Positions 1,434 through 23,467 of a stretch of 32,000 nt of DNA are shown here, piece by piece. Origin of the DNA: Candidatus Saccharimonadota bacterium (GTDB taxonomy: Bacteria; Patescibacteriota; Microgenomatia; UBA1406; GWC2-37-13); NCBI GenBank assembly GCA_001790095.1, contig MGBH01000001.1, forward strand, positions 900,001-932,000, read 5' to 3'. The notes under the pieces were generated by a model. The model was not told the origin of the DNA. It did not search any database and was given only the letters and a program-made list of their open reading frames with translations. Made by a program: the position numbers and the translations under genes. Each line of letters begins with the position of its first letter. The stretch's first letter is position 1.

Positions 1434-3596
1434 ATGACTAGTATCTTGACTCTTAAAGCATTAAGTAAACGTATCCGCTACCAAATCCTTTCTTCAACTA
1501 CTGCGGCCGGGTCTGGTCATCCAACATCGTGTCTCTCAGCTGTTGAGCTCATGACTACCCTCTTTTTCGGAGGGTTTCTGAAGCAAGATATACAAAATCC
1601 CCAAAATTATGAAAATGATCGGGTTATTTTTTCCAAAGGCCATGCTGCTCCCCTTTTATACTCTTTATACGAGACAGCGGGGGTGCTCACTCAAAAAGAA
1701 CTGATGACACTCCGCAAGTTTGATTCGCGCCTCCAGGGCCATCCCACCCCTGAGTTTCCATGGGCTGATGTAGCAACGGGCAGCTTGGGGCAAGGATTGT
1801 CTATCGCTGTTGGCATGGCTCTTGCTTTAAAAAACTTTCGGTCACTACTTCCTAATATATATGTTCTCCTGGGTGATTCTGAGCTTGCTGAAGGACAAAA
1901 TTGGGAAGCACTTGAAATAGCCTCATATTATAAACTCAATACTATCGTTGGCATTCTTGATATGAGTCGTTTAGGCCAACAGGGACAAACTATGCTCGGA
2001 TGGAACACACATGCCTACGCAAAAAGAGTTGAGGCTTTTGGATGTCAGGCCATTGTGGTAGAAGATGGCAACGACCTAAAACAGGTATATAATGCGTTTA
2101 TGCAGGTTGAAAGCTTACGTCTTACCTCCCATAAGCCTATTCTTATAATCGCTAAAACGATCAAAGGAAAAGGGGGTTCTTTCTTGGAAGATAAAGACGG
2201 TTGGCACGGGAAAACACTTTCCTCAAAACAGCTAACAAAAGCACTTGAAGAACTTGGACCTGTGGATTTGAAACTCAAAGGAACTATCAAAAAACCAAAC
2301 TACGCTTTTGCATGTCATCCCGGCGAAGGCCGGGATCCAATCTATAAATACAACAGCTGTAATTATAGTCTAGATTCCCGCCTACGCGGGAATGACAAAA
2401 TAAGCTCTTTACTAAAAAAACTGGTAGTTTCATCTCAAATGAAAGTAGCTACTTCTAAAAAAGCTTTGTGTACTACACATTATTCGCTAAACGACTCAAT
2501 CGCCACTCGTGAAGCATTTGGCGATGCACTTTTTGATATGGGCCATGACGAAAAAATCGTTGTGCTTGATGCTGAAATGTCAAATTCCACTTTTGAAGAT
2601 AAGTTTAAAAAAAGATTTCCTGAGCGTTTTTATGAGATGTTCATCGCTGAACAAAATATGATGTCAACGGCTCTTGGTATGGCTAAAATAGGGCATATCC
2701 CTTTTGTCTCAACATTTGCTGCATTCCTTACTCGAGCATTTGATCAAATACGGATGTGTCAATATTCTATTCAAACTGCGATAGGCGGCGAAAATTCAGG
2801 CAAGAATTTGAAACAGAATCTATCGCAATCAAACACTCTCAATATTATTGGTTCACACTGTGGGGTATCAATTGGGGCAGATGGACCATCTCAGATGGGT
2901 CTTGAAGATATTGCCATGATGCGTGCAATCAATCAGAGTACAGTCCTCTATCCTGCAGATGCTGTATCCAGCTACAAACTCACCCGTCTTATGGAGACAA
3001 ATCCCGGCATCAATTACCTGCGCACCACCCGTGAAAAAACACCGATTATTTATAACAATGATGAAGAATTCCATGTGGGAGGATTAAAGATACATTACCC
3101 AAACCCAAATAAATTACAAATCACAAATAACAAATTACAAACAAATCACAAATCCCAAAATTCAAAACTACAAACAAAATATAAAATCAAGGCAATAGTT
3201 ATTACCGCTGGGATTACACTACACGAAGCTTTGAAAGCGCAAAAAGAACTTGAAAAAGAAAAGATATATATAACGGTCGTAGATCTTTATAGCATAAAGC
3301 CGTTGGACGTGAAATCATTACAGACGGCTATAAAAGATGTAAAAAAAATAATCGTGGTTGAAGACCATTATGAAGCGGGAGGAATAGGAGAGGCTATATT
3401 ATCAATAACCAATTTTCAATCAAACTCTAATAATTCAATGATCAATGAAAATTCATTGAAAACTGAAAATTGCAAAATTACAAAATTTACTCACCTCTGT
3501 GTCCGTAAAACGCCCCGTTCAGGTACGCCTCAAGAGCTACTTCGCTTTGAAGGAATCGATAAAGAAGCTATCAAAAATACTGTTATCTATGAATGA
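1434..3596 (+). CDS. tkt: Transketolase, with N-terminal (TPP-binding) and C-terminal (pyrimidine-binding plus C-terminal domain) sections in a single ORF carrying four in-frame inserts
   Basis: AAGSGHPTS, SKGHAAP, GSLGQGL and GDSELAEGQNWEA (TPP motif) lie in residues 1 to about 290. ATREAFGDAL, VVLDAEMSNST, FIAEQNM, GSHCGVSIGADGPSQMGLEDIAMMR and VVEDHYEAGGIG lie in residues about 355-720. Confidence 0.85.
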   Translation: MTSILTLKALSKRIRYQILSSTTAAGSGHPTSCLSAVELMTTLFFGGFLKQDIQNPQNYENDRVIFSKGHAAPLLYSLYETAGVLTQKELMTLRKFDSRLQGHPTPEFPWADVATGSLGQGLSIAVGMALALKNFRSLLPNIYVLLGDSELAEGQNWEALEIASYYKLNTIVGILDMSRLGQQGQTMLGWNTHAYAKRVEAFGCQAIVVEDGNDLKQVYNAFMQVESLRLTSHKPILIIAKTIKGKGGSFLEDKDGWHGKTLSSKQLTKALEELGPVDLKLKGTIKKPNYAFACHPGEGRDPIYKYNSCNYSLDSRLRGNDKISSLLKKLVVSSQMKVATSKKALCTTHYSLNDSIATREAFGDALFDMGHDEKIVVLDAEMSNSTFEDKFKKRFPERFYEMFIAEQNMMSTALGMAKIGHIPFVSTFAAFLTRAFDQIRMCQYSIQTAIGGENSGKNLKQNLSQSNTLNIIGSHCGVSIGADGPSQMGLEDIAMMRAINQSTVLYPADAVSSYKLTRLMETNPGINYLRTTREKTPIIYNNDEEFHVGGLKIHYPNPNKLQITNNKLQTNHKSQNSKLQTKYKIKAIVITAGITLHEALKAQKELEKEKIYITVVDLYSIKPLDVKSLQTAIKDVKKIIVVEDHYEAGGIGEAILSITNFQSNSNNSMINENSLKTENCKITKFTHLCVRKTPRSGTPQELLRFEGIDKEAIKNTVIYE
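2314..2396 (+). mobile_element. MITE/REP-like 83-bp double-hairpin element, copy 1, inside the transketolase ORF and read in frame
   Basis: Termini are GTCATCCCGGCG...CGCGGGAATGAC (imperfect terminal inverted repeats). There are two perfect 8-bp stem / 4-nt loop hairpins at 2317-2336 and 2374-2393. By eye it is about 85 percent identical to the inverted copy at 22226-22307. Confidence 0.7.
2778..2826. repeat. 49-bp palindromic insert inside the conserved pyrimidine-binding domain of transketolase
   Basis: GCGATAG (2778-2784) pairs with CTATCGC (2820-2826). The inner pair is AAATTC (2792-2797) with GAATTT (2804-2809). It encodes the extra segment ..AIGGENSGKNLKQNLSQ.., which is absent from the usual DQIR..N..GSH spacing. 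Confidence 0.5.
3098..3190. repeat. A/C-rich low-complexity insert (imperfect repeats of about 22 nt, aaattacaaa(t/c)..caaat) in frame in transketolase
   Basis: It encodes PNPNKLQITNNKLQTNHKSQNSKLQTKYK. It shares the strings aaaattcaaa and atataaaatc with the secE-nusG spacer element. Confidence 0.5.
3408..3492. repeat. AT-rich palindrome-containing insert in frame near the transketolase C-terminus
   Basis: It contains the palindrome tcaatga-aaat-tcattga. It encodes TNFQSNSNNSMINENSLKTENCKITKF, between the conserved GGIGEA and PRSG motifs. Confidence 0.45.
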
Positions 3597-5484
3597 AGCT
3601 TGGTATTCTCTTTATTCTATTTATCATAAAAGCTTCAATATCACGCATCAGCTCTTCTTGAATATCTGCTGGTATTATTTTTTGCTGTTTTATTCTATTA
3701 AGAAGTTTATTAATTCGCTCATCCCATCGTTTTCCATTAAAAAATTGCCATAAAAGAGTATCCAATGTCGCTTTACCTTCAAAAAATTCGCTTTTTACTA
3801 TTGAGTCAAACATTAATGCGGTAGGATGCATACGTGAGAGGTATTTTTGTGCACGAAGCAAACTAATTATGCTATCATAAAAATTATCTTCAGCTGCAAT
3901 GAGTACATCATGATATGAAGAGATCGGATCTTCAGGCTTGATCAAAACATGAGCATTACCCAGGGGGAGTTGAATTTTACGTTCCGCTTCATTTTGACCT
4001 AAAGAAGATGATAGATTTTGTATGCTGGCAATTGCTTTTCGTGTACTTTCGGAAAGTACTTTCGGATCGCCACGAACTCCAATCAAAAATGTACCTCCGT
4101 ATCTGCCGAAAATAAGATGTTCTCGCTCTTCAGGTTTGATTGAACTGCTTATTTTATTCCATAAAGTAACGATCGCATCATCTGCATCAACATAGCTAAT
4201 ATAATCATTCATTTCTTTGATAAACTTCAGATCCACCACATACATCTCACGTACCTCTCCCCGCGTCACATGCTCCTGAAAATCATATTTTGAGTATACG
4301 GTATCACCCAAAAGCTTATCGTAAACAATATTCTCAATAAAATGCAGAATAGCTTCTCTCCGATGCTTTACAACTGGATTGTGATCTTCTGCTCTTGGAG
4401 TAGAGCTTTTTCTCTGCTCATCATACCTGACTTTTTGTTCTTTAAGATCAAGGTCTTCTGCAAGAAATAGTGCCGTTGCGAGTTCTGGATGCATTTTAGC
4501 AAGATGCAAGATCTTTTTTCTCATTTTTTCATGCTCATTTTTTTCTTCTTGGATATCAGTTGGATAGATGGAGTTTTCTATAGCTTCAATAGAGGAGGTC
4601 CTTCTCCCTTGTATCTTCATCGCTTGTTCTTGATTAAGTATTAAGCCTCGCGAAAGATAGGAAAGGGTGGTGTCCCGTATGGGAGAAGGTGAATCTTTGG
4701 TAATATCAATCCAATCTACCTTGTCGCCTTTGAGCAAGATCTCCTCTTGTACTATACCTTTATTTTTCCTATAATACCCGCCCCGAGTTGCTAAATGCCT
4801 TTTTACTCTTGATTCAATCTCAGCTTTAATATCAGCTTTTCCTGAAACTTGTTTGAAGTCGCCAATAAGAGCCAATACAAACTCATCTCCTCCGTATCGG
4901 CCAAAATAATAATCTCTTGATTGATCTTTTCCTAGATCAAATTCTTGCCAGACTTCATCGATAGCCTGTTGAATAGCTTTTGCTGAACGATTTACGATAA
5001 GATCAGCAGATCTGTGAGGACTCCCCTCAACAGCAAAATCAGCTCCACGAAGATCTTTGATATCAAACATCCCCAACTGCAAAGAAGCTCCTTCATATTT
5101 ACCATTGGGAGCAACTTTCTGAAGCACTTCATGAAAAAAAGCAGACCTTCCAAGGATAGGAAACCCTTCTTCCTGTATCGGTTGTTCTCCTGGAGGTGAA
5201 AACGTAATATCACGCATTAATCCTGTATCTAAGGCTCTGCTGAAAAAAGACTCAAGGATGTTTGTTGCGGTATTATATCCTTCTTTACTGGGCTCAGGCA
5301 TCTCAAAATGATTTATCTGTCCCCGGTAAATCCTTTCAAGAAAGTTATATGCTGATGGAGACATCGCTTTGTATTTATCAAGCATACGGCTTGCTTCATG
5401 GCGCGCAATATCAGGCGTATGAAGCTTGGCAACTTTGCTTTCAGCCGGTTCAATCAGAGTTTGTTCAGGAAATGTAACTCCCAT
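3583..5484 (-). CDS. Protein with two tandem GGDEF/Palm-like nucleotide cyclase domains (first has RYGGDEF, second has RYGGTF) and a helical C-terminal region
   Basis: Domain 1 reads FDIKDLRGADFAVEGSPHRSADLIV...FGRYGGDEFVLAL, with GGDEF at 4879-4893. Domain 2 reads VDLKFIKEMNDYISYVDADDAIV...FGRYGGTFLIGV, with GGTF at 4087-4098. Both align by eye to the DxDxFKxxNDxxGHxxGD...RxGGDEF pattern. The ATG at 5482-5484 is preferred over the track's TTG at 5523 because TATACT lies 6 nt upstream. Confidence 0.6.
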   Translation of the reverse strand: MGVTFPEQTLIEPAESKVAKLHTPDIARHEASRMLDKYKAMSPSAYNFLERIYRGQINHFEMPEPSKEGYNTATNILESFFSRALDTGLMRDITFSPPGEQPIQEEGFPILGRSAFFHEVLQKVAPNGKYEGASLQLGMFDIKDLRGADFAVEGSPHRSADLIVNRSAKAIQQAIDEVWQEFDLGKDQSRDYYFGRYGGDEFVLALIGDFKQVSGKADIKAEIESRVKRHLATRGGYYRKNKGIVQEEILLKGDKVDWIDITKDSPSPIRDTTLSYLSRGLILNQEQAMKIQGRRTSSIEAIENSIYPTDIQEEKNEHEKMRKKILHLAKMHPELATALFLAEDLDLKEQKVRYDEQRKSSTPRAEDHNPVVKHRREAILHFIENIVYDKLLGDTVYSKYDFQEHVTRGEVREMYVVDLKFIKEMNDYISYVDADDAIVTLWNKISSSIKPEEREHLIFGRYGGTFLIGVRGDPKVLSESTRKAIASIQNLSSSLGQNEAERKIQLPLGNAHVLIKPEDPISSYHDVLIAAEDNFYDSIISLLRAQKYLSRMHPTALMFDSIVKSEFFEGKATLDTLLWQFFNGKRWDERINKLLNRIKQQKIIPADIQEELMRDIEAFMINRIKRIPSFIHR

Positions 5485-5490
5485 ACATGT

Positions 5491-5496
5491 AGTATA
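5491..5496 (-). promoter_or_regulatory. -10-like TATACT 6 nt upstream of the ATG at 5484
   Basis: The minus strand reads ggcccTATACT-acatgt-ATG. There is no good -35 (TTGATC at a 21-nt spacing). Confidence 0.3.
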
Positions 5497-5531
5497 GGGC
5501 CTAGAAGTGAAAAAAGCGATCAAACTGAGAT

Positions 5532-5567
5532 AAAAAAACCACGGGCTCTAATTGCCCGTGGTTTTTT
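5532..5567. terminator. Bidirectional rho-independent terminator
   Basis: A7-CCACGGGC-tctaatt-GCCCGTGG-T6: an 8-bp GC-rich stem flanked by an A-run and a T-run. It lies 21 nt past the stop of the 1,898-aa ORF. Confidence 0.7.
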
Positions 5568-5587
5568 GTTTGTTCTCTGTTATTTCC

Positions 5588-8500
5588 TTATTTTTCTTCA
5601 GGAGAAACTTCAATAATAACACGACCATCTCCTCCCTCTGGCAACGCTTCCTGTGTTTTTGGATTTGGCGTATTACCAACCAATTGAGCGATGTTTTGTG
5701 CTGCTTCTACACCTCTCGTTTCTGCAATCAAAGCTTGAGGAGTAGGAGGTGTCAACACTACACCAGGCAATCCAACTGAGGCAAAATGGGCACGATAATC
5801 ATCTAGAAGAGTAACAAAAGGACTCTCAGAATCAGATAGTGTTTTTATCCATTCCCCATATTCTCGTAAAAACTTTATCATTGCATCAGGTCTCGTAAGG
5901 ATTGACTTCAGATAATCAAGCATAAGCGTAGGCAATCTATCTTCAAGTTGTTTTAGCGTATTCTTTGCAGCTGTCAAATATGCTTGTCTTGTCCCTTTAA
6001 ATAATCCCCATTCTGCTTCCATCTGTGTAAGAAGGTCCGTTTGATTTGTGGTTGCAAGTTCAATTACTTTTTTATCGTAAGCTGCTTGAAGTACGGCTGT
6101 CTGGTTTATCATCGCCGCTTCTTGTCTGAACATACCTGTTCTTGCCTCTCTTAATATTTTTTCTCTTTCTGCCTCGTCAGTGAGAGCAGCAGCAACCAAA
6201 TCCAAAGCAGCTATCCGAAGTTTATTAATCCCCGCGGTTAATTCAACATCACCTGTCTCTTTAAGCATACCTGCAAGCAGTTCTCTTACATTGGCCCGAT
6301 CAGCAAATGCTGCTTGGAGTGTACCTCTTACAGCATCTGCGGTAACCGCTTGATTTTGACTTCTTTGCGCTGCCATATAAGATGCTACCGTCAAAAACTC
6401 TAGTGCTTGGTTTGCCCTATCTCCTCCGATAGCTATTCCTACATTACCTCCCCCAACCCCCCCACCCTCACCTGTAGGAAGAGGAGGTGTTTGATCTTGT
6501 TGTAATAATAATTGTAATTCTTGACCGATAACTCCTAAAATCTGACCAAAATCCACTTGCCCACTTCCCAACTTTTCAACAAGAGAAGCGGCTAAGGAAA
6601 GACCTGAACTGTTAGGAGCTGCAGAAACCGTTTCTGATGTAAATCCTGAGGCTGTCTCTTCATGTGCCTCTATATTTGTGTCCTTTCGTAATTTTTCATA
6701 TCTTTGATTTGCTTCTGCAACCAGCTGTGCTGTTAAAGCAGGAGCTCCTTCAATGCTTTTGATTAATCCAGTTGTTGGATCAATCTCTATTCCTGTAGCC
6801 ATTCTTCCTCTCACCATATTGATGACTTGAGATAATTGATCTGCCACAGTCAAAGCAGCTTGTGCGATCTGGCTCGTTACTGCTTCTGATTGTGCTATTA
6901 AACCGGTCGGGTCCATAGGTGGTCTCATATCCTTATGGGTAGTTGCATAGATTAATAGATCATCTTGACCCAATCGTCTTAGAGTTGGTATAAGTCTTAC
7001 CCTTGCAGCTTCTGCTGGACAACTACCTTCAACTGCATCAAGAGTAACATCTCCAAACTGCTTTATAAATGCAACAGCTGAATGCAGAAAAGATCTCCCT
7101 AATGTTCCATCTTTCAGTGATAGATGTCCTGCATCATCAACCACCAATAGGGACTTTGGGGGTTTAATTAAACCTGTTTCAACAGGTATAAGTTCGTATC
7201 CGTTTTCTCCTTTTCGATATATTTCAACTTGATCATGTACTGCAGTTCCGATAGGTGATCTTCTAGCCATACCTCCAATTGCAGCATAACGCTCAAGTAA
7301 ATCTAAGGTTGCCCCAAGAACTATACGAGCTTGTGCTTCACGATATGGCGGTTTTGCACCACCCTCTATGGCTGTGTTTGCTTTCAAAGCAGTTGCACGA
7401 GCAATCCCTAACCATGTAGTCCCATCATCAATCTTCCAATGAGCACCTGTATTTTCTCTTAGTTTTTGAACTAACATGTCATACATAAGAGTCAATGATT
7501 CATTGCTATAATTTCCCGCCCATTGATGTAATACTTCAAGCGCAGCACGTCGGACCATAGGATTAAATGTTCTGCCTTGTGTATCAAGCAATATATCAGT
7601 TAAATCGTCAAAAAATAGTTGTCTTGTTTCCTCTTTTACTGGATCAAAAGTTCCTTCTCTCGTTGCATAGAGAGCTCCATTCATAAGTAGCTGAGTAGCA
7701 AGACGTGCCTGCATTTTCGCATTTAACAACCCTGTGCTTTCTTGCTCTGTCAATGTGACTGGTGGTTTTGCTCTAAGTTTTGCAAGAGCATCCTGCCATA
7801 GTGGATAATCTAATGATCGGTTCAAAGCAGAAGCTCGCAGTTGATCATGAAACAATCCATACATTGTTCGTAATAACCCTGCGGCTACTTCATGACCTTC
7901 AGGTGAGTTTTTAAGATCTGGATCTGAGAGCCATGACATACGTTGATTTGGATCTCTAAGAACTACTGCAATATCACCGGTATGCCTGAACAGTGTTTCA
8001 AAACCTCCACCTCTTGCTTTTGGATTACTTGCAGACATATCATCTGCCAAATCAAGTATTGCTAATATGTCACCATCCCATGCTCTTTGAAGTTCTTTAT
8101 TCAAAGGAATAGTACCAGTACGCTCATAATATGCATATGCTTTTTGCGCTTGAGTCCATTCCGAATGTTCGGCAATTTCTCTTTGAGCCTGTAAACGGAC
8201 TTCACGTTTTCCTTTTCTTGCGTCTTTTGCAATTCTTCCTGCAACAAGTGGGGATGCTATTTCAAAAACAGCAAGTGGATCAGCCATCATATAAAATGAC
8301 TCTACTTCCATCCATGCTGAGTCTAGCCCGCTACGCATGATTCTATAAGCATTTTCAATCGAAGCAACTGTAGCTTCAACCAACACATTCCATTTCTCAG
8401 CTTGAACCGGCGTACCAGCTGCATGAGTTAAGGTCTCAAACCGTGCAAGAGCAAGCAGCATAACAAATAAAGCTTGCTCTTCTGGAGGTTTTTTATTTTT

Positions 8501-11284
8501 TGTTTCAATATATGGAAGCATTCTCTTAAATATTTCAGGATTTAGCCTTGCAGCTCGTATCACCTGTTCTGTTACTATTTCACCGATTGTTTTTGTCGCT
8601 TTGGCACCTTGCCCCGAAGCTTCTCTTGCATCAAGCGCAATAGCGATAGGTGAATTAATGACATCATGAATCACTTGATATGTAAGTCTCATTTGAAGAT
8701 CTAGATTGGTTGTTTTAACCATCATGTCAAAAGCATTCTGTACTTCAGCCTCAAGAAATGCAAGTGATGATTCTGAGTCCATAAGAGCAATTCTTTGAGC
8801 TAAAGCATCTCGTTGTCTTTGCAAATATCCGTCCAAATCAATTACTCCACCAGCTCTATATCTAGGCGCATCAAGTAATCTCATATGTTCACTCCAAAAT
8901 CCATTACTTCTCTCAACTGCTTGATCAGGCTGACCAACTATTTGTAAAGCTATTTGGCTGAACGCTTCTGTCAACTGCTCTGTAGCTGTCAACACTGCTA
9001 CCAATCTTTTCCCATGACCTTCGGTTAATTTACCTGGCATATCATCGCCAGTTACTACTCGTTGAGTATTTATCACAATATACATCTGCTGTGCCGGCTC
9101 AAAAGTTTGAGCTAAGCTTAGTAAACGTCTTTGTTCTTCAGCAAGAACATCATTAATCCTTTGATATTCTGTTCCTATTCCATAAGTTCTATCAAACAAA
9201 GCATCTACCAATCCTTGAGGGTATGCCACAGTAGTACCAACTGTGCGGAAATATTCATTGGCACCAACTGTTAATGCACCATTTTTTACTACAAGAGCAT
9301 CAAGGTCATCAATCATTCCAGTATGTGGCATTATGCGTACCCCTCCCAAATATGTATCTTTTCCAAGAGCATATGTATCTTTTAAGGCAGGAAGATTCTG
9401 TGTTCTGCCTAATACATTAAGGGCTTCTTGAACAATCCTTTGATCAGCTTTATACAATCCATTTTGTTCTGTACCTTTTGCTAAGCCATAAAACGGATTT
9501 CCAGAACAATCAACAAGTCGTTGCCACATTTCACGTATTGGTCCTTGTCTAAGGGCCATTTCAGCTTGATTTTGTATTTGCTCTTTTTGTCTTTGATCAT
9601 TTCCCTTATATAGCTTTAAAGCATCTGCACGAGCTTGTTCGATATTAGTGTTTAACTCAGCATTTCCATTTTCATAATGTACGGTTATGTCTTGTGCCAA
9701 ACCTTCAGCAAGTCTTGGAAGTCTTTTTTCAGTGGTTGCTTCGTTGTACATACGAATCAACTGTCCTTGTGTTGCTAGATCCTGTACTTGGGTAATTGCT
9801 GGTTTAATTTGTTGAAGAGCCTGATACACATGAAGTTGTGCATAAGGATCAAAGGGAGCTGCCGCTTCGGCAAGCGCATTCAGATCTCTTACGATTTCAT
9901 CTTGTACACAAGCTCCTGGTTGATTTGGATGTACTGGATATCCAAGAGCACCATATATTGGATTTCGCATTTGAGCAACCAACTCAGCTACTCGCCGTTG
10001 TGGATCTGCAAGATAAACTTGTTGATTTAAATAATCTCTTCCTGCTCTAAGTCCATCACGGTTCAAATCTTGAAGCAATGTCACCAAATCTCGAACTGGA
10101 TATCTTTCAAGTGCTCCTTGAGTATGATTTACTGTTGGCAAAGTAGTATTTGCACCAAAGACGATCTCATTCCCTCCTAATAAAACTTCTTTACCAGCAC
10201 TGATAAATGCTGCTTGTGTAGGAGCATCAAAAGTGCCAAGATTTACAACAGTTTCAGCAATTTCTCTTCTTGCTGCTTCAATTGCAGCCATACTTCCTCC
10301 AGGTAAGCCAGACAAAGGATGAGTAACGTGCTCTATCTGTTCGTTCCAGAAAGCTAATGCAACCGAACGTAATGCATCATAGGTTGCCCTATGCGCATCA
10401 ACACTATTAGTTTGTGCTTGTGCTTCTGTTAAGCTTACTCCTCTTAAAGCTTGGCTTAAAGCATTTTCTCGTTGTTCTAAAATTCGAACAGAAAAATTAT
10501 GAGCTCCTACTTCAAAAGTCTGTTTTGTTCCGGCTATCATTTCAGCTACAATAGCCCTTGCTTTTATACGTTTTCCAGACTTTGATGTGACTCGTGCATT
10601 TGTTTCATTAAGCAGTGTCAATAAATTGCCACCGACAGCAGCGCGTGCATCACCCTCTAATTCATTAACCGCTTGAGACGCAAGAAATGCATCATACTCT
10701 ACTTGAACGGGAGATTTATCCACATCGTCATATCCTTCTGGAATGATAAGTGGATGCGTCCCATCAGGTCCCATCTTCGTATGAGTTATTAATGAAGCTG
10801 CACGAGGAATGATTAAACCACTTTTTGTTGCTACATCTGCTGGAATACCTTGCTGTAGTAATTCAACTTCTTGTAAAAATCTTCTTTCCCAACCATGTTC
10901 AATATGTGGATTTGAAAGCAGTTCCGCGTATAACTCTTTAATTCTAGCTCTTACTACAGGCTCTCCTGTATTTGCATAAATATCTTGAAGGACTCGCTCT
11001 CCATATGTGATAAAAGGAACAACATTATCTCCTGGTTCACTTGCTAATCCTTGCATTCCAATTACGGGTACCTGCACAACACCTCTTGATTTATCAAAAT
11101 AGCGACTCGTAACACCAAGTGTAGAATTATCCAAACTATAAAGTGGATCCCAGTAAGATGCAGGGTTTGTAACCGGCCCTCTTAATAATGTTCCTACTCT
11201 TTTTTGAATGGGAATTGTAAACGCTGGTTCAAATCTTCTTAACCCTAAAAATCCTGCTCCCTTTCGTTCAGTAATTTTACTCAT
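5588..11284 (-). CDS. Giant hypothetical protein, 1,898 aa, predicted cytoplasmic, with no domain recognised
   Basis: An uninterrupted 5.7-kb ORF with an ATG start. I could find no signal peptide, hydrophobic segment of 20 aa or more, Walker A or HExxH. The sequence is rich in A/L/Q/G/T/R and poor in Lys, with a Gly-rich hinge PTGEGGGVGGGNVGIAIGG. Confidence 0.85.
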   Translation of the reverse strand: MSKITERKGAGFLGLRRFEPAFTIPIQKRVGTLLRGPVTNPASYWDPLYSLDNSTLGVTSRYFDKSRGVVQVPVIGMQGLASEPGDNVVPFITYGERVLQDIYANTGEPVVRARIKELYAELLSNPHIEHGWERRFLQEVELLQQGIPADVATKSGLIIPRAASLITHTKMGPDGTHPLIIPEGYDDVDKSPVQVEYDAFLASQAVNELEGDARAAVGGNLLTLLNETNARVTSKSGKRIKARAIVAEMIAGTKQTFEVGAHNFSVRILEQRENALSQALRGVSLTEAQAQTNSVDAHRATYDALRSVALAFWNEQIEHVTHPLSGLPGGSMAAIEAARREIAETVVNLGTFDAPTQAAFISAGKEVLLGGNEIVFGANTTLPTVNHTQGALERYPVRDLVTLLQDLNRDGLRAGRDYLNQQVYLADPQRRVAELVAQMRNPIYGALGYPVHPNQPGACVQDEIVRDLNALAEAAAPFDPYAQLHVYQALQQIKPAITQVQDLATQGQLIRMYNEATTEKRLPRLAEGLAQDITVHYENGNAELNTNIEQARADALKLYKGNDQRQKEQIQNQAEMALRQGPIREMWQRLVDCSGNPFYGLAKGTEQNGLYKADQRIVQEALNVLGRTQNLPALKDTYALGKDTYLGGVRIMPHTGMIDDLDALVVKNGALTVGANEYFRTVGTTVAYPQGLVDALFDRTYGIGTEYQRINDVLAEEQRRLLSLAQTFEPAQQMYIVINTQRVVTGDDMPGKLTEGHGKRLVAVLTATEQLTEAFSQIALQIVGQPDQAVERSNGFWSEHMRLLDAPRYRAGGVIDLDGYLQRQRDALAQRIALMDSESSLAFLEAEVQNAFDMMVKTTNLDLQMRLTYQVIHDVINSPIAIALDAREASGQGAKATKTIGEIVTEQVIRAARLNPEIFKRMLPYIETKNKKPPEEQALFVMLLALARFETLTHAAGTPVQAEKWNVLVEATVASIENAYRIMRSGLDSAWMEVESFYMMADPLAVFEIASPLVAGRIAKDARKGKREVRLQAQREIAEHSEWTQAQKAYAYYERTGTIPLNKELQRAWDGDILAILDLADDMSASNPKARGGGFETLFRHTGDIAVVLRDPNQRMSWLSDPDLKNSPEGHEVAAGLLRTMYGLFHDQLRASALNRSLDYPLWQDALAKLRAKPPVTLTEQESTGLLNAKMQARLATQLLMNGALYATREGTFDPVKEETRQLFFDDLTDILLDTQGRTFNPMVRRAALEVLHQWAGNYSNESLTLMYDMLVQKLRENTGAHWKIDDGTTWLGIARATALKANTAIEGGAKPPYREAQARIVLGATLDLLERYAAIGGMARRSPIGTAVHDQVEIYRKGENGYELIPVETGLIKPPKSLLVVDDAGHLSLKDGTLGRSFLHSAVAFIKQFGDVTLDAVEGSCPAEAARVRLIPTLRRLGQDDLLIYATTHKDMRPPMDPTGLIAQSEAVTSQIAQAALTVADQLSQVINMVRGRMATGIEIDPTTGLIKSIEGAPALTAQLVAEANQRYEKLRKDTNIEAHEETASGFTSETVSAAPNSSGLSLAASLVEKLGSGQVDFGQILGVIGQELQLLLQQDQTPPLPTGEGGGVGGGNVGIAIGGDRANQALEFLTVASYMAAQRSQNQAVTADAVRGTLQAAFADRANVRELLAGMLKETGDVELTAGINKLRIAALDLVAAALTDEAEREKILREARTGMFRQEAAMINQTAVLQAAYDKKVIELATTNQTDLLTQMEAEWGLFKGTRQAYLTAAKNTLKQLEDRLPTLMLDYLKSILTRPDAMIKFLREYGEWIKTLSDSESPFVTLLDDYRAHFASVGLPGVVLTPPTPQALIAETRGVEAAQNIAQLVGNTPNPKTQEALPEGGDGRVIIEVSPEEK

Positions 11285-11404: not shown

Positions 11405-14191
11405 TTAGAGGAATGACAATACTTCTAATAATCGCTCTCTTGTAAATCTGGGATATGTTATTCCATCAATTTGAAATAGTATTACGTTTTCTGGATTAAG
11501 TAATAGATGTATACATTCTCGCAATCTCCTTTTATTCATTTCTTGTTTTACAGATAGCGATCCTCTTACCTTACCACTATCCATAAAACGATCAACGTCT
11601 GTATGTATTTTTTCCAGGACTTGAACCATAGTCTGAATCACTAGGCCTTTGTGAGCTTCAGTATCTTTTGTTCTTAACATATTAATAAGTATAGTTAGAC
11701 TTTCTGCATAATCCAGCTTGATTGACTTTTTTCTCTCTTTTCCTTTTGTTGCTCTACGAATTTTTTGTTCGGGTACATGTTGAAATGCTGGATTGACAAG
11801 AGCTAAAGCTTTTGAAAGCCGTACTTTATTACCGAACGTACTACCATATTCTTTTTTTTGCCCTGGAGTTAGATGTTTTGAGTTCAATCCTTCTCTTATT
11901 CTTAACAATTTATCTGGTGGTATATGACCAACTTGTAACTCATCTATCGCTGCTTTTAATTTTGGTGGATACTCCTTTTTCTGCTTCCTTTCATAGATAG
12001 CTACACCAAGAGCAGTTGCCACAGTAGTATTAAAAAGTCCAAGTCCAATGATACCAACTTCAGCAGATACTTCGACAACCTTTTGTAATAATGGATCAAC
12101 ATCTGGAGCTTGAGCTTCGGCTACAAATTGTGCCGGATGCCCTGCATCATCATACATAGTTAGAGTAATCGTCGCTTTATTTTCCAACCATGGCGTATCG
12201 CACGTAACCGTTGACTGACTTCTATCTTGTGCTACTGAAGCTAGGTGACAAATCACCTGATCATTATTTCCTGTGATATCTTTAGTTTGTGTGCGAATCC
12301 ATAGTAATATCTCTGAAAGCGGCTGACCAAATATGTGGGTATCTTGCCAGGGAGCAGGTTGAGAACCCTGAGATTGTGTTATATCCAATGCAAGATTATG
12401 TTGAGGATCAGGATGAATAAGAAGTATATTTATCGTACGTCCGCCATGATCGTTTGGCTGCTGAGAAACGACCTGGACTGTTACTCCGGCAAATGGAGAG
12501 TACCCTGGTTCAAGGACGCTTAACTGCTCACTACAGTTACCCAATATTCCACACGCCTGTACAAAACTTGTTCTTCCTGTATCTCCTGGTTCAGGCCTAT
12601 CGGTAAACAAAGCAACACCCAACTCATTTACTCCTGAAGATTCTGCTTGATTATCTACTGTTCGTGTTACTGAACATGGATCGCCAACAGGAGTCTCCGC
12701 ACAAGTTGCATCAAGTACTCTCGTGGCATCTTGTATTGCTACATGTATGGCCGTTAGGGTAGGTGGAGGAAGAGATCTCATAAATGCTTCAAATGCAGTG
12801 TTTTGACCTGAGAACTGTACCTCACCCGCTACTCTTCCATCTGGGTCACTTATGGAAATCGGTATGATGGCCATATGAGTATCTGCACCTATTGAAATAC
12901 GAGTTCCATCTTCCAATACGATGTCCCCCATCCCATTACATAAAACTGGAAAATTAACTGTATTTGAGGCAGCGTCAAACTGTGCTCCGTCTGCACCTTC
13001 TCCTTGTAGACAGGTAGTAGGAAGCGCTGCGGTTGTTTCTCCTGAATTTTCATTTCCATGATTATCTATTGTGGTAAATCCTCGGGTCCGAATTGATCCA
13101 TCGATGGGTAATATAGCGGTGCCGTCTTCTATTACTACTCTATCTCCTCCGTCTGTAGGTATTATCCTCCCCTGTCCATCACAAGTAAGCGCAGCGGCAC
13201 CTTCACCCACAATGCCTGTTTGAATACAAATTGTTTCCTTGGTATCAACTTCTCCTGTTATCAAAGCAGCATCTCGAGCTCCTTCATCACATCCTCCTTG
13301 TCCATCTAGTGGCGCCATTGAAACAGTTAAAGCAATGGGTCCTTCTTGACCATCTACCGGTATGATATCTAGGCCAAGCCCTCCATCATCCAGTGTCACC
13401 TCTGCGCTTTGTACTGGAGATAAAACACCTTCTATTGTTGCGCATGCAGGAGACATTTCGTTACTACGGTTCCCATCAAGAACAACACGAGTTGGATCAA
13501 CTATCGTCTCCCCAAGAGCAACATCATCAATCTGAGGTGGTTCGGGTGGCATGGGAACATCAACAGATATTTGTACTAATCCATCAGGAGAAGGCTCACC
13601 ACAGATCGGTTCTCCTTGGCTTGACGCATTTAAACAATTTTCTGCGTTAACCTGTAGGGTCCCTGACCCTACTATTCCTAAATCAAAACATTGTTCACCA
13701 GGAGCTTGATCAGGTAAAGCCACTTGAACAAGTGAGATAACAGCGCCATCCATAGTAACACCACTGACTTGAGGTATTATGTCTGGGTTCGGAAGCTTTA
13801 TCCCTAAACTATTTGCAACAGCTGAAACACCAAGCAAGTGTGCGGTTTCATCTGTTTGAGATAAACCCACACAAACTTGTACAGGTGATCCTAATGGCAG
13901 ATTGCCACTTGAAGGAAAAAACCTAACATCAGGCGATCCTAATTCGCTTTGAATTGCAGCAACTTGCTCTGCACTTAAGTTTAAATCTTCTAAATCTGTA
14001 GTAGATTCTACAGCTGGGGCAGAACCATTACAAGCAGTGGTAGTTAGTGCTAACGCTGTTCCTGAGACAATGAATTGCACAGGTCCTTTTGACGGAAGAT
14101 GACCCTGACCACCACCCACTTTTACACCTTCACCAGATACATCGGTTGGGGGGTTCATTTTAGCAGAATGTCTTATGTGGAGCTCTCCCAT
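11405..14191 (-). CDS. Membrane-anchored Cys-rich surface protein (about 928 aa): lipoprotein-like signal, large ectodomain, one TM helix and a basic cytoplasmic tail
   Basis: The N-terminus reads ..SKGPVQFIVSGTALALTTTAC (lipobox-like). I count 17 Cys between track residues 66 and 676. The TM helix VGIIGLGLFNTTVATALGVAIY (11993-12061) is followed by ERKQKKEY... and a K/R-rich tail of about 195 aa. The ATG at 14189-14191 is preferred over the track's TTG at 14227, which coincides with a -35 box. Confidence 0.8.
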   Translation of the reverse strand: MGELHIRHSAKMNPPTDVSGEGVKVGGGQGHLPSKGPVQFIVSGTALALTTTACNGSAPAVESTTDLEDLNLSAEQVAAIQSELGSPDVRFFPSSGNLPLGSPVQVCVGLSQTDETAHLLGVSAVANSLGIKLPNPDIIPQVSGVTMDGAVISLVQVALPDQAPGEQCFDLGIVGSGTLQVNAENCLNASSQGEPICGEPSPDGLVQISVDVPMPPEPPQIDDVALGETIVDPTRVVLDGNRSNEMSPACATIEGVLSPVQSAEVTLDDGGLGLDIIPVDGQEGPIALTVSMAPLDGQGGCDEGARDAALITGEVDTKETICIQTGIVGEGAAALTCDGQGRIIPTDGGDRVVIEDGTAILPIDGSIRTRGFTTIDNHGNENSGETTAALPTTCLQGEGADGAQFDAASNTVNFPVLCNGMGDIVLEDGTRISIGADTHMAIIPISISDPDGRVAGEVQFSGQNTAFEAFMRSLPPPTLTAIHVAIQDATRVLDATCAETPVGDPCSVTRTVDNQAESSGVNELGVALFTDRPEPGDTGRTSFVQACGILGNCSEQLSVLEPGYSPFAGVTVQVVSQQPNDHGGRTINILLIHPDPQHNLALDITQSQGSQPAPWQDTHIFGQPLSEILLWIRTQTKDITGNNDQVICHLASVAQDRSQSTVTCDTPWLENKATITLTMYDDAGHPAQFVAEAQAPDVDPLLQKVVEVSAEVGIIGLGLFNTTVATALGVAIYERKQKKEYPPKLKAAIDELQVGHIPPDKLLRIREGLNSKHLTPGQKKEYGSTFGNKVRLSKALALVNPAFQHVPEQKIRRATKGKERKKSIKLDYAESLTILINMLRTKDTEAHKGLVIQTMVQVLEKIHTDVDRFMDSGKVRGSLSVKQEMNKRRLRECIHLLLNPENVILFQIDGITYPRFTRERLLEVLSFL

Positions 14192-14198
14192 GGGGTGT

Positions 14199-14227
14199 AT
14201 TATACCAAAAACTATAGGAACTTTCAA
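14199..14227 (-). promoter_or_regulatory. Consensus sigma70-type promoter of the 928-aa gene, leaderless layout
   Basis: The minus strand reads TTGAAA(14222-14227)-17 nt-TGgTATAAT(14199-14204)-acacccc-ATG(14191). The spacer contains CTATAG. Confidence 0.5.
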
Positions 14228-19776: not shown

Positions 19777-21444
19777 ATGCCCGAACCTCTTAAACTTAAA
19801 GAAGTTGCCCATTTAGATCATATTAAAAGATGGATTACTCTTAGCCGCAGTGGTACTGTGACTGATGAATTAATACGTTCACGCAATATGCTTGTTGATC
19901 TCCTTAACCCATCGTTTTCTTCGTTTGTCTCATATTCTCAAGATATGCCTCCTCTTCATAACTATATTGTTCAGATGTCAGAAAAACACAGGCTTATTGA
20001 GCTTCAACCGGATCTCGAAAGAGCCCTAGAAGATCTACCTAAAGATATGCGCGCACTAAACAAACCTCAGCAAGAACTTATCGGATTTGCGTCAATTGTA
20101 TTGGAAGGATGTAATATTGATACTCAGATAGAACCGACAACATATATGAATCCTTCACGCCTGAATAGTCGCATGAAAAATGCTGTTCACTTTCAAACAG
20201 AAGAAGATTGGCTTGAATCAGCATCGTTTGTAGCAAACTACCATGGTACAAGCTACGAGCAGGTTTGCAAATCAGAAAGCATAAAACAAATGGAACGCTA
20301 TTTAGCTCCAATCTCGCGAAATGTTACACCTGAACACATAGAACACCTTTTTAAACTATTTACAGATCACGTATATCCACCAAGCCATACCGGTTCTTTT
20401 CAAACTCCCGCAATCAGATCAAGAACTATCCCATTCTATGCTCCAAACAACGTGGATCAGCACGTATGGGCAATTATGGATTTGGAACAAAATATCGCAT
20501 ACGAACTTGGAGTCTTGATCCCCTATCATCCAACTCCTGAAAGCAAACAAAGAGCAATGGATTATTATCTTGAGCTTTTCTACAACCCTTTACTTGAAGT
20601 AAGTCATCAAACTGATTATTTCGAAGCTTTGAGCATGCTTTATACGCTGTATCTATGTCTGCATCCGGCACTTGACGGAAACGGTACTATTGCTAAAGCT
20701 CTCGTAAATCATTTTATGACAAATAAAGGCCTCCAACCGCTTGATTGGGATAAAATAAAATCAAACCCACGCAAACTAAAAGAAGGACAATCGGCGGTAT
20801 TAGAGTGGATCAAAGATAACAGAAGGCCACTTCAAGATTGGTTTAAAGCTTTGACTGAACCAGAAAGAACTCCTTTTACTGTATTGGAATACGACTCTAT
20901 TGGTATCGTAAGAACTCCTGATGGAATACGAATATATGGAATCCCCAAAGATCAGTCATTAAAACCTAAAGATGTGACTTTGCTTACAGATCAAGATTTA
21001 AAGGATCCTCAGATGGTTCAGCAAATCATTGAACAGGGGTGGCTTGACATAGTTGAATTAAAAATATCAAAAGAATCATACAACCCTCTTGCATACCAGC
21101 GATTTTTGGAACTTTTACAACTCGCTGGAGAGCGCTATCAAGAAGCCCTGGATACAACCGCACAAACAGGTAATAAAATTAATCCCGATGATCCTCACGA
21201 GCGCCTTCGTCTGGTTGGCGAATACAGGAAATCAGCAGCAATAGCATCTGGTCTATCTAAAGATCCATGGTATGTCGAGCTATCAGCCAATGTAGGATTT
21301 GTATGGAGACAGTACTTACATTATGATCCACAAGGCAGATTAGTTACAGACGTAGACAGACTGCACGCTGAGGTCGATTGGCTTCATGAACCCGATGGAA
21401 TAACACAAAGAGCGATCGGAAGGGTAAACTGTCTAGGTCGATAA
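19777..21444 (+). CDS. Fic/Fido-like protein with a degenerate active-site motif
   Basis: HPALDGNGTIAK (20662-20697) compares with the canonical HPFx(D/E)GNGRxxR. The His, Asp and GNG are kept, and the two Arg are replaced by Thr and Lys. The rest of the 555-aa protein is unrecognised. Confidence 0.5.
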   Translation: MPEPLKLKEVAHLDHIKRWITLSRSGTVTDELIRSRNMLVDLLNPSFSSFVSYSQDMPPLHNYIVQMSEKHRLIELQPDLERALEDLPKDMRALNKPQQELIGFASIVLEGCNIDTQIEPTTYMNPSRLNSRMKNAVHFQTEEDWLESASFVANYHGTSYEQVCKSESIKQMERYLAPISRNVTPEHIEHLFKLFTDHVYPPSHTGSFQTPAIRSRTIPFYAPNNVDQHVWAIMDLEQNIAYELGVLIPYHPTPESKQRAMDYYLELFYNPLLEVSHQTDYFEALSMLYTLYLCLHPALDGNGTIAKALVNHFMTNKGLQPLDWDKIKSNPRKLKEGQSAVLEWIKDNRRPLQDWFKALTEPERTPFTVLEYDSIGIVRTPDGIRIYGIPKDQSLKPKDVTLLTDQDLKDPQMVQQIIEQGWLDIVELKISKESYNPLAYQRFLELLQLAGERYQEALDTTAQTGNKINPDDPHERLRLVGEYRKSAAIASGLSKDPWYVELSANVGFVWRQYLHYDPQGRLVTDVDRLHAEVDWLHEPDGITQRAIGRVNCLGR

Positions 21445-21457
21445 CAAATAGTACTTC

Positions 21458-22216
21458 TTATATTTTCTCCAGATCAATCCTTATGCTGGGAGTCATGGTA
21501 GAGGTAAGAAATGCATCTAAGATATTTATCTTTCCAACAGCGTTCATAAAGACCCTGATGTTTTCAATAAGTTTTTTGTCCTCATAGGAAAGCTTACCAA
21601 CCATTTGGTGAATAAGAGGAAACTTGTTTTCTGTTTTGTAGCGAAGTGTTCCTTTTAAGAATTTTTTTGCGATTTCTTCAGGATTTGGAGAAATAGTACC
21701 TGCTTTTGGATTGGGCATAAGACCTTTGGGACCTAGTATCTTTGCATATTTTGCAAGACGCGGCATAAAGGATGGGTGAGTGATAAGAATGTCAAAGTTC
21801 ATCCTACCTGACTCAAGCTCTAAAAGCACTGCATCATTCACGATCGCAACACGGACCGTCTTACCTGTGCTGTGAGGAAGTTCAATCTCACCCCTAATAC
21901 CAGTCTTTCCAACATTTAGATGTAGATCAACTGATTCATCAAAGGAAACATACTTCATCTTTTTTAAAAGAATGATCGCATCTTCAAGGCTATATTTCTT
22001 TTTTTTATCAACTTGTTTTTTTGAGGCAAGATATTTTTTTCCGCGTCCACTTTGTCCTTTTTTTTTGGTGGTGCTTGATGTTTTTTCAACCTTTTTTTCT
22101 TTTACTTCGATCTTTTCTGATGACTCTTTTTTTTCCATTGCCTTTTTTTTCTGCTCTTCTTTTTGTTGTTTTTCAACGTCTTCTACTCCTAAAGCTCGTG
22201 GTTTCATTTTTCCCAT
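21458..22216 (-). CDS. rplA: 50S ribosomal protein L1 with an N-terminal extension of about 55 aa rich in Lys and Glu
   Basis: The canonical L1 core runs from ..GKKYLASKKQVDKKKKYSLEDAIILLKK..VDLHLNVG.. to the end. It sits immediately downstream of rplK. Confidence 0.9.
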   Translation of the reverse strand: MGKMKPRALGVEDVEKQQKEEQKKKAMEKKESSEKIEVKEKKVEKTSSTTKKKGQSGRGKKYLASKKQVDKKKKYSLEDAIILLKKMKYVSFDESVDLHLNVGKTGIRGEIELPHSTGKTVRVAIVNDAVLLELESGRMNFDILITHPSFMPRLAKYAKILGPKGLMPNPKAGTISPNPEEIAKKFLKGTLRYKTENKFPLIHQMVGKLSYEDKKLIENIRVFMNAVGKINILDAFLTSTMTPSIRIDLEKI

Positions 22217-22225
22217 AATATTTTT

Positions 22226-22307
22226 GTCATTCCCGCGAAGGCGGGAATCTAGACTATAATTTCAAATTTGTATTTTGAGACTGGATCCCGGCCTCCGCCG
22301 GGATGAC
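22226..22307 (-). mobile_element. MITE/REP-like double-hairpin element, copy 2 (inverted relative to copy 1), in the rplK-rplA spacer
   Basis: GTCATTCCCGCGaaggCGGGAAT...ATCCCGGCctccGCCGGGATGAC. It has the same two 8-bp/4-nt hairpins and the same central attatagtctagatt core as 2314-2396. Confidence 0.7.
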
Positions 22308-22317
22308 CTCGCTGGGG

Positions 22318-22743
22318 TCATTTCTCTACATCTATCCCCATGCTTCTTGCTGTCCCTGCAACTACTTTCTTTGCTGCTTCAATATTGTCTGTATTAAGAT
22401 CTGGTAATTTTTCCTTTGCTATTTCCTCCAGTTGAGACTTTGTCAACTTACCGACTTTCTCCGTATTTGGTCTGCCGCTCCCAAGTTTTAATCCTATCTT
22501 TTTTTTAATCATAGCTGCAACGGGTGGAAGTTTGGTAATAAATGTAAATGACCGATCTTCATAAACAGTTATAACAGCTGGAATAATCTGTCCCTTTAGC
22601 TTAGCAGTGCGTGCGTTATACTCTTTGATAAACTCCATGATCGGAATACCGTGTTGACCCAAAGCAGGACCAACTGGTGGAGCAGGTGTTGCTTCTCCGG
22701 CTGAAAGATTAAGTTTGATAAGTGTCTTTACTTTTTTTGCCAT
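22318..22743 (-). CDS. rplK: 50S ribosomal protein L11
   Basis: [33 protein letters not shown]..., 141 aa. Its ATG lies 1 nt after the nusG stop. Confidence 0.95.
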
Positions 22744-23332: not shown

Positions 23333-23340
23333 ATATTAAA

Positions 23341-23460
23341 AAATTCAAATGTCAAATCTCAAAACTCAAAACTCAAATCTATATATGAAATATAAAATCT
23401 TAAGATAGACATTTAAGATTTTAGATGTAGATCTGATATTTGAACTTTGAGATTTAAGAT
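23341..23460. repeat. Composite inverted-repeat/microsatellite element filling the secE-nusG spacer
   Basis: The outer imperfect arms are aaatctcaaaactcaaaactcaaat and atttgaactttgagattt. The inner perfect hairpin has a 10-bp stem, aaaatcttaa (23394-23403) with ttaagatttt (23413-23422). CTCAAAA heptamers are present. Confidence 0.5.
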
Positions 23461-23467
23461 TACTCTC

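Follow-up and report, generated by a model that had tools for sequence, protein, structure and literature searches.

A palindromic repeat of probable CGTC-1 type, read in frame in the interdomain linker of a single-chain transketolase from a Microgenomates bacterium

The stretch of DNA analysed here (the window: 32,000 nucleotides, positions 900,001 to 932,000 of contig MGBH01000001.1, Candidatus Saccharimonadota bacterium, placed by GTDB in Microgenomatia) contains a single-chain transketolase gene (tkt) whose open reading frame (ORF) of 720 codons passes without a stop through an 83-nt palindromic repeat, copy 1, reading ..ACHPGEGRDPIYKYNSCNYSLDSRLRGNDK.. within the longer stretch ..KKPNYAFACHPGEGRDPIYKYNSCNYSLDSRLRGNDKISS.. 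(Table 1). In Pfam, Transketolase_N covers residues 12-275 of this ORF, with Transket_pyr beginning at residue 355 and Transketolase_C at residue 586, so that the residues encoded by the element fall in the linker between the PP and Pyr domains. A second copy, inverted with respect to the first, occupies the spacer between the ribosomal protein genes rplK and rplA within the minus-strand row secE-nusG-rplK-rplA, and shares 74 of 83 aligned columns with copy 1 (89%; a first-pass annotation of this DNA, made from the letters alone, had estimated about 85 percent by eye). That annotation had regarded the element as a repeat rather than native coding sequence, and as one that is read in frame; both statements are borne out, the former by the second copy in the window together with family members elsewhere, the latter by the intact ORF.

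Copy 1 ends in two perfect 8-bp hairpins with 4-nt loops, about 35 nt apart and with their tags directed outward; the stems of the left and right arms differ, which makes the element a heterodimer. Folded as single-stranded DNA (ssDNA), the two copies reach -21 to -23 kcal/mol (z-scores -4.9 to -7.1), values equalled by none of 200 shuffles, so that sequence, folds and shuffles agree on the hairpin pair first described at this position. The hairpin core pattern occurs four times in the window, and the SRM motif twice, against 0.06 expected per dinucleotide shuffle (at most one in 100 shuffles); a scan of the whole window with Rfam at gathering thresholds gave no match. An independent JGI contig (L001, 4843 bp; metagenome 3300009296) corresponds to window positions 1479-6195 at 99.98% identity across the element site, and copy 1 is therefore no assembly artefact, an objection that the first-pass annotation had raised against itself.

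Table 1. Features of the window that bear on the repeat and its host gene (positions in the window)
Feature	Position	Strand	Description
Single-chain transketolase ORF, host of the element	1434..3596	+	720 aa; from ORF list, Pfam and AlphaFold2 model
Copy 1 of the element	2314..2396	+	83 nt; head-to-head dimer of hairpins like CGTC-1 REP and NTS; encodes residues 294-321
Left hairpin unit	2314..2339	+	From sequence, core-pattern match and fold
Parts of left arm			GTC tag 2314-2316; stem ATCCCGGC 2317-2324; loop GAAG 2325-2328; stem GCCGGGAT 2329-2336; tail CCA 2337-2339
Right hairpin unit	2371..2396	-	Reads (T)GTC ATTCCCGC GTAG GCGGGAAT CTA on the - strand
Parts of right arm, read on + strand			TAG; stem ATTCCCGC 2374-2381; loop CTAC 2382-2385; stem GCGGGAAT 2386-2393; tag GAC 2394-2396
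Spacer, conserved subterminal sequence	2340..2370	+	- strand reads ..CTAGACTATAATTAC.., including the hexamer TATAAT; from alignments
Copy 2 of the element	22226..22307	-	82 nt; intergenic, inverted relative to copy 1; all six reading frames closed
rplA (ribosomal protein L1), downstream neighbour of copy 2	21458..22216	-	Pfam Ribosomal_L1
rplK (ribosomal protein L11), upstream neighbour of copy 2	22318..22743	-	Pfam Ribosomal_L11_N and Ribosomal_L11

Hairpins of this design were classed by Di Nocera, De Gregorio & Rocco (2013, BMC Genomics 14:522; PMC3733652) as CGTC-tagged repetitive extragenic palindromic sequences (REPs). In their description (PMC3733652) the CGTC-1 type has an 8-bp stem starting with two A-T pairs, a 4-nt loop, a CGTC or TGTC tag (CCTC also occurs) and a tail near CCA; its units form mostly head-to-head dimers with tags outside and spacers of 20-100 bp, its intragenic dimers encode 20-30 amino acids, its hosts are Proteobacteria, Chlorobi, Bacteroidetes, Spirochaetes and Thermotogae, and it is the same family as dRS3 of Neisseria and RPE-6 of Rickettsia conorii. 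In the window, the outer bases read TGTC on both arms of copy 1 and TGTC and GGTC on those of copy 2; the stem-loops of copy 1 are ATCCCGGC-GAAG-GCCGGGAT and ATTCCCGC-CTAC-GCGGGAAT; its tail is CCA on one arm and CTA on the other, where most relatives have CCA; and its tags enclose the hairpins and the conserved spacer between them. Since every feature of hairpin and dimer listed by these authors is present, we take the element to be a head-to-head CGTC-1 REP dimer. The neisserial relationship was examined against the 28-nt NTS of Chenal et al. (2025, Nat Commun 16:2388; PMC11893778), CGTCATTCCCGCGMAVGCGGGAATCYRG, which encompasses dRS3 (ATTCCC-N8-GGGAAT) and is bound as ssDNA by SsnA, a 94-aa GIY-YIG nuclease that cuts a few nucleotides upstream. 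The Ssn genes of that family code for a single GIY-YIG domain (cd10448) and typically have hairpins on both sides; outside Neisseria the hairpins go by the name SRM, for which the authors give a degenerate pattern. Exact dRS3 matches lie at 2374-2393 (copy 1) and 22229-22248 (copy 2), and SRM matches at 2370-2397 (-) and 22225-22252 (+); the right arm of copy 1 agrees with the NTS consensus at 26 of 28 positions and the copy 2 arm at 22225-22252 at 27 of 28, and the strict NTS pattern, from which the arms differ at one and two positions, has no exact match in the window. We consider it very probable that a CGTC-1 REP dimer resides in the PP-Pyr linker of a single-chain transketolase and is read there as a tolerated, disordered loop of about 28 residues.

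Copy 1 is open in two of its six reading frames, copy 2 in none. Compared with the 82-nt intergenic copies, copy 1 has one extra base in the spacer, which moves the frame from a TAG stop (..ATAGTCTAGATTCC..) into the open ..LDSRLRGND.. frame; because the additional base bypasses this stop, it points to selection for an open frame at copy 1. The length of 83 nt is exceptional for a coding copy, the others measuring 90 or 120 nt, while the intergenic copies measure 65, 82, 82, 82, 88 and 90 nt.

In-frame residence of these repeats is not confined to the window. The transketolases of three relatives (loci L122, L123 and L124) contain a 90- or 120-nt member of the subfamily in the same PP-Pyr linker, placed after the linker helix and in the orientation opposite to that of the window's element (..VIPAQAGIQTMISNTKM.HLRLDPCLRRDD..); from their different position and orientation, we regard these insertions as independent of the one in the window. 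Among roughly 14 distinct full-length copies, six or seven lie inside long ORFs. In groundwater metagenomes, Pfam matches flank the insert in a leucyl-tRNA synthetase (L128), in LepA (L144) and in a tRNA-guanine transglycosylase with two copies (L151), and stand on both sides of three hairpin-bearing inserts in a PfkB kinase (L159); a further copy lies in the ORF of a probable membrane protein that has no Pfam match (L132), and a GT2 glycosyltransferase (L178) has a single hairpin in frame. Other repeats also occur in transketolase linkers. At its second linker the L122 protein has a peptide, HFERSEKSR...LDFSVAKNSFEMT, of a kind typical of a different hairpin family, and four tandem TTACAAG heptamers, read ..MLQVTSYKLQ.., close its first linker; the linkers of many homologues end in ..NYKLG or SYKLQ.., probably derived from similar simple repeats.

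Such recurrence raises the possibility that the element is kept for a function at the level of DNA or RNA rather than as a neutral passenger, for instance as a site where Ssn cuts incoming ssDNA and so limits its recombination (the role of NTS in Neisseria), as a hotspot at which recombination diversifies the linker, or as a source of antisense transcription from the TATAAT box. The lowering of transformation by NTS and SsnA with NTS-bearing DNA in Neisseria (PMC11893778) would favour such a role, as would the independent gain of these elements, at two sites, by the transketolase linkers of several lineages, and the fact that in about 10 of 24 single-hairpin contexts a start codon follows the subterminal TATAAT at a distance of 6-25 nt. 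The recurrence is, however, equally explained if linkers alone tolerate an insert of 30 residues; transketolase linkers also collect simple tandem repeats, most homologues are without the element, and neither a simple scan for sigma-70-type promoters nor a terminator scan called anything at either window copy. We consequently hold a retained function to be unlikely, the element in tkt being most likely a passenger without a function of its own at that site.

The single-hairpin contexts number about 24. In these a lone hairpin is followed by CCAGACTATAATTAC, and in about 10 an ORF of at least 60 aa starts only 6-25 nt past the TATAAT box; they include L126, L127, L133, L137, L145, L163 (before rplK), L183, L189 and L179 (before ssn), and the corresponding sites in the window are 2355-2372 in the spacer of copy 1 (- strand) and 22250-22262 (+ strand). 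This arrangement suggests that the hairpin-linked TATAAT may act as a portable -10 element for leaderless or near-leaderless mRNAs.

The first-pass annotation had proposed a more consequential event, namely that two adjacent genes for the N- and C-terminal sections of transketolase were joined when the element landed in their intergenic spacer and removed a stop codon, with the ATG at 2439 as the probable original start of the second gene. Split transketolases of other lineages do divide at the boundary where the element sits, and the ATG does lie downstream of it. Comparison with the best 120 homologues (48-58% identity; Roizmanbacteria, Gottesmanbacteria, Microgenomates or Patescibacteria where named) nevertheless speaks against fusion. 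All 120 are single chains of 615-833 aa with Transketolase_N, Transket_pyr and Transketolase_C, whether they contain the element or, as nearly all do, lack it; hairpin peptides were found in eight, where they occupy two sites, one in the PP-Pyr and one in the Pyr-C linker. With every one of the nearest homologues a single chain, the fused gene predates the element. Aligned with MAFFT, the proteins vary most in the PP-Pyr linker, which is full of low-complexity and repeat-derived peptides and has no hairpin element in most homologues, and the residues that follow the element (ISSLLKKL...) align with a semi-conserved short linker helix (..LLxKL..) in the continuous ORFs of relatives; Met335, encoded by the ATG at 2439, is thus internal and not a former start codon. 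Relatives, moreover, have the element elsewhere in the same pre-existing linker. The proposed fusion is accordingly contradicted and very improbable, and the element was very probably inserted into an already single-chain transketolase, with no joining of genes.

An AlphaFold2 model built with 55 aligned homologues has a predicted TM-score (pTM) of 0.83 and a mean per-residue confidence (pLDDT) of 80. Confidence drops below a pLDDT of 50 over several longer segments, namely 293-320 (the element), 330-346 (what remains of the linker), 449-464, 476-485, 563-576 and 667-680, and a helix is predicted at 321-331, directly after the element segment. Because residues 293-320 are of low confidence amid confident domains, the insert is predicted to form a disordered surface loop of about 28 residues between intact domains, in line with the surface linker that the first reading of this locus had suggested looking for. 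The window protein shares 134 invariant columns with the homologues in the alignment. As the element is tolerated as a loop, the enzyme bearing it most likely stays functional; predicted junction peptides are PNYAFACHPGEGR, DPIYK and YNSCNYSLDSR. Some 100 additional residues, spread over four or five segments of low confidence, and an element length that is no multiple of 3 might be taken to mean that the ORF is decaying as a pseudogene or is chimeric through misassembly, and in frame by accident; this is exceedingly improbable in view of the intact 720-codon frame, the shared invariant columns, the confidently modelled domains, the independent contig over the site, and a spacer indel that specifically bypasses the in-frame stop.

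At two of the low-confidence segments, 563-576 and 667-680, the DNA has degenerate tandem repeats. These are two more in-frame inserts in the transketolase ORF, at 3106-3178 and 3432-3487, reading NPNKLQITNNKLQTNHKSQNSKLQ.. and ..SNSNNSMINENSLKTENCKI.. with periods of 7/25/33 and 7/8/18, respectively. The former lies at the Pyr-C linker, where relatives have hairpin elements, and a related A/C-rich repeat is intergenic at 23339-23399.

Searches beyond the window revealed a broad dispersal of the repeat. A two-hairpin pattern retrieved at least 120 stretches in species-representative genomes of many phyla, the hosts among the matches listed including Alpha-, Beta- and Gammaproteobacteria, Parcubacteria, Falkowbacteria, Omnitrophica, Chloroflexi, Actinobacteria, Planctomycetes, Acidobacteria and a Tisiphia endosymbiont. 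A pattern for the subfamily of the window's element (GCGGGAATCYARACWATRATT) retrieved 66 metagenome stretches in about 42 distinct contexts, many of them from groundwater (e.g., the Hainich wells). Plasmid and phage collections yielded no close copy, and gave partial hairpin matches in Azospirillum, Legionella, Neisseria, Sphingomonas and a Microcystis phage. Eleven full copies were aligned: they show no variation in the left arm or in about 14 nt of subterminal sequence, which is in part a consequence of how the search pattern was built, and the stem of the right arm has compensatory changes at three pairs (CCCGGC, CCCTGC, CCCCTC and CCCCGT, each with its complement), stem pairing being complete (100%) in all 11. 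At the protein level, a profile of the element peptide gave 144 matches among 1.84 billion protein representatives, 77 of them shorter than 100 aa; the short ones are consistent with spurious ORFs called over repeats, and real proteins among the matches include a class I aminoacyl-tRNA synthetase, an MmeI-type methyltransferase and an ABC ATPase. The three longest matches (type IX secretion system surface proteins and a CotH protein) were discarded as false positives, being without hairpin signatures. A 60-aa concatenation of two versions of the peptide returned only three weak matches, from which we conclude that a word-indexed search is unsuited to such a query.

Nested insertions occur in the loop of the ATTCCCGC hairpin (L124 2700-2790; L128, L151 and L159; L150, L177, L189 and L133). 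A 30-nt loop insert, TCGTCCAAAGGGCGATTGACCTCTGGTCAAAA, read as ..SSKGRLTSGQK.. or ..LLTRGQSPFGRR.., recurs in the copies in transketolase, leucyl-tRNA synthetase, tRNA-guanine transglycosylase and PfkB; its recurrence in several genes indicates that the 120-nt variant propagates as a unit. Other loops of this hairpin hold different small palindromes.

A longer arrangement of the same hairpins links them to a gene. On contig L179, a hairpin (+) is followed by CCAGACTATAATTAC, by a 97-aa ORF with a GIY-YIG domain (Pfam 2.5e-16) and by a hairpin (-): CCAGACTATAATTACCTTAT stands directly before the ATG of this ssn gene, and the inverted hairpin follows its stop codon. The left 38 nt of the unit match copy 1 at 37 of 38 positions, and the subterminal sequence of the window's spacer is the sequence that also precedes ssn. 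The L179 ORF has thousands of homologues, the best of them 70-88% identical and named as GIY-YIG nucleases of Roizmanbacteria or Patescibacteria; the single homologue in a gonococcal chromosome (54% identity, E = 5e-28) is surrounded by 10 NTS hairpins in 3.3 kb. On the Roizmanbacteria contig JACRPE010000001.1, an ssn gene flanked by three hairpins occurs together with a tkt gene that has a single in-frame hairpin (GMDSRLRGNDK). By analogy, the short dimers resemble a non-autonomous element in relation to its parent, the ssn unit.

The origin of the window's locus is very probably as follows. A CGTC-1 head-to-head dimer entered a transketolase already consisting of one chain, in its hypervariable PP-to-Pyr linker; the insert is tolerated and would be translated as a disordered surface loop of about 28 residues; and the extra spacer base steers the frame past the TAG, which points to selection for an open frame. 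An Ssn-family GIY-YIG nuclease, with its gene elsewhere in the genome, would recognise the hairpins as ssDNA, and the short dimers would derive from hairpin-ssn-hairpin units, or spread with their help. More tentatively, several of these observations can be combined, such that the dimers of the Candidate Phyla Radiation (CPR) are deletion derivatives of hairpin-ssn-hairpin units spread by Ssn, frequently colonise genes in frame (about half of the sampled full-length copies then lying in essential housekeeping genes), and as single hairpins provide a portable promoter. We regard this combination as possible and rather less than probable; if true, Ssn would be the long-missing mobilising enzyme of repeats of the dRS3, NIME and RPE-6 type.

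Several points weigh against the account given here. The 83 nt of copy 1 are not divisible by 3. Among the best 120 homologues, the nearest one that lacks the element is only 58% identical; no empty-site allele of the tkt copy was found among them, and neither the exact boundaries of the insertion nor the compensating change can be reconstructed at that distance. Translation and activity of the protein bearing the insert are putative. With regard to the nuclease, a six-frame search for GIY-YIG motifs found no ssn or other GIY-YIG gene in the 32-kb window, so that the link to Ssn is putative for the window organism, and a corresponding search of 120 genome loci gave two chance matches and no plausible ORF. 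For the one ssn gene whose contexts were compared, the identical protein (P0141) stands at one conserved tpiA/uvrD locus in all places read, in many samples; since it is always at the same locus, there is no sign of a moving ssn unit, and multi-copy spread is unsupported. The activities shown for SsnA are the cutting of ssDNA and the lowering of transformation in Neisseria (PMC11893778), and the spreading of hairpins by Ssn is a hypothesis of Chenal et al. 2025 (PMC11893778) and of the present analysis. As the ssn unit was not seen moving and target-site duplications are missing, we infer, rather than observe, spread through Ssn.

Two further observations concern the ssn genes themselves. An Ssn homologue named from Sulfuricaulis (Gammaproteobacteria; P0219) is 70% identical to the L179 ORF, and between Neisseria and CPR the hairpin arm hardly differs, which together suggest that the ssn/hairpin pair may have been transferred horizontally across phyla. 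In L194-L196, an IS3-family insertion (rve and HTH_Tnp_1) lies upstream of ssn; it is absent in the variant L193.

In relation to known systems, the element agrees with CGTC-1 REPs in its (C/T)GTC tag, its 8-bp stem with two A-T pairs first, its 4-nt loop, its CCA/CTA tail, the outward tags around a conserved spacer of about 35 nt, and the coding of 20-30 aa by intragenic dimers. It departs from those published in its CPR/Microgenomates host, in the two different stems of its arms, and in a conserved ..AGACTATAATT.. block in the spacer that is common to the region upstream of ssn. It resembles neisserial dRS3/NTS and SRM in that its arms agree with the NTS consensus at 26-27 of 28 positions and match the dRS3 and SRM patterns, and it recalls the NTS/Ssn system in that related groundwater contigs have a 97-aa GIY-YIG homologue with the same hairpins on either side. 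NTS in Neisseria cluster around surface-protein genes, whereas the dimers here are isolated and the window is without ssn; CPR bacteria and in-frame coding copies are unmentioned in Chenal et al. 2025 (PMC11893778). Two inverted dRS3 hairpins around a short repeat segment of lower G+C content also recall the NIME unit (dRS3-RS-dRS3; a gonococcal example is L125 4001-4107), although NIMEs form long intergenic arrays and the window has two isolated units, one of them intragenic.

The first-pass annotation had likened the situation to Rickettsia palindromic elements (RPEs), reportedly described by Ogata et al. in 2000 and 2002. The likeness is apt, in that a palindromic repeat lies in frame in a functional-looking protein and is tolerated as an extra surface segment; the equivalence with RPE-6 is stated by Di Nocera et al. 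2013 (PMC3733652), and the two-hairpin pattern is present in a locus of Tisiphia (Rickettsiaceae; L038). Host phylum and lifestyle differ, and RPE-1, of about 150 bp, is unrelated in sequence. The same annotation had called the element similar to MITEs (transposable elements of miniature size with inverted repeats), a description that holds for the inverted ends and fails in other respects: no flanking direct repeat, as expected of a target-site duplication, was found at any of the 11 full copies, and the gene associated with the hairpins, in the longer unit, encodes a GIY-YIG nuclease and not a transposase. A classical MITE was rejected on these grounds, and a REPIN/RAYT system was set aside because the tag is (C/T)GTC, not GTAG. 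In common with REPIN/RAYT and with MITEs derived from insertion sequences, the family has short, non-coding, inverted hairpin pairs in many copies and a single-copy gene flanked by the same hairpins; it differs from both in its CGTC tag, in the lack of a visible target-site duplication, and in having a GIY-YIG nuclease in place of a Y1 (RAYT) or DDE transposase.

The finding is neither a new kind of element nor a mechanism of gene fusion, and the repeat family with its in-frame intragenic dimers is already known (PMC3733652). New are the CPR/Microgenomates host, the repeated hits on transketolase linkers and the hairpin-ssn-hairpin unit that shares an end with the dimers. The CGTC-1/NTS hairpin family and the Ssn nuclease are thereby extended to the Candidate Phyla Radiation, and the in-frame colonisation of housekeeping genes known in Rickettsia is found also in free-living, ultra-small groundwater bacteria; the end common to the short dimers and the ssn unit offers a testable handle on Ssn-driven spread. 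For annotation, the peptides VIPAxAGIQ, SFPRRRES, HSREGGNP and LDSRLRGND in CPR proteins flag repeat insertions rather than native sequence, and such peptides inflate protein lengths and disturb alignments and structure models.

Around copy 2, a comparison is afforded by L163, a relative whose rplK is 82% identical. Its rplK-rplA spacer (L163 2995-3091) is of similar length and without the hairpin element, and is filled by other short simple repeats (AATTACGAATT, AATCCGTAAT), with a single hairpin upstream of rplK; filled in this manner, it provides no clean empty site for copy 2. Large ORFs elsewhere in the window lie at 3583-5523 (-, 646 aa), 5588-11284 (-, 1898 aa), 11405-14227 (-, 940 aa) and 19777-21444 (+, 555 aa), and a Pfam scan of three of them (646, 940 and 555 aa) gave no match. 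The nusG-secE spacer contains, at 23348-23461, an inverted repeat with 51-nt arms that are 76% complementary and 12 nt apart, composed of simple repeats of the CAAAT/CTCAAAA type.

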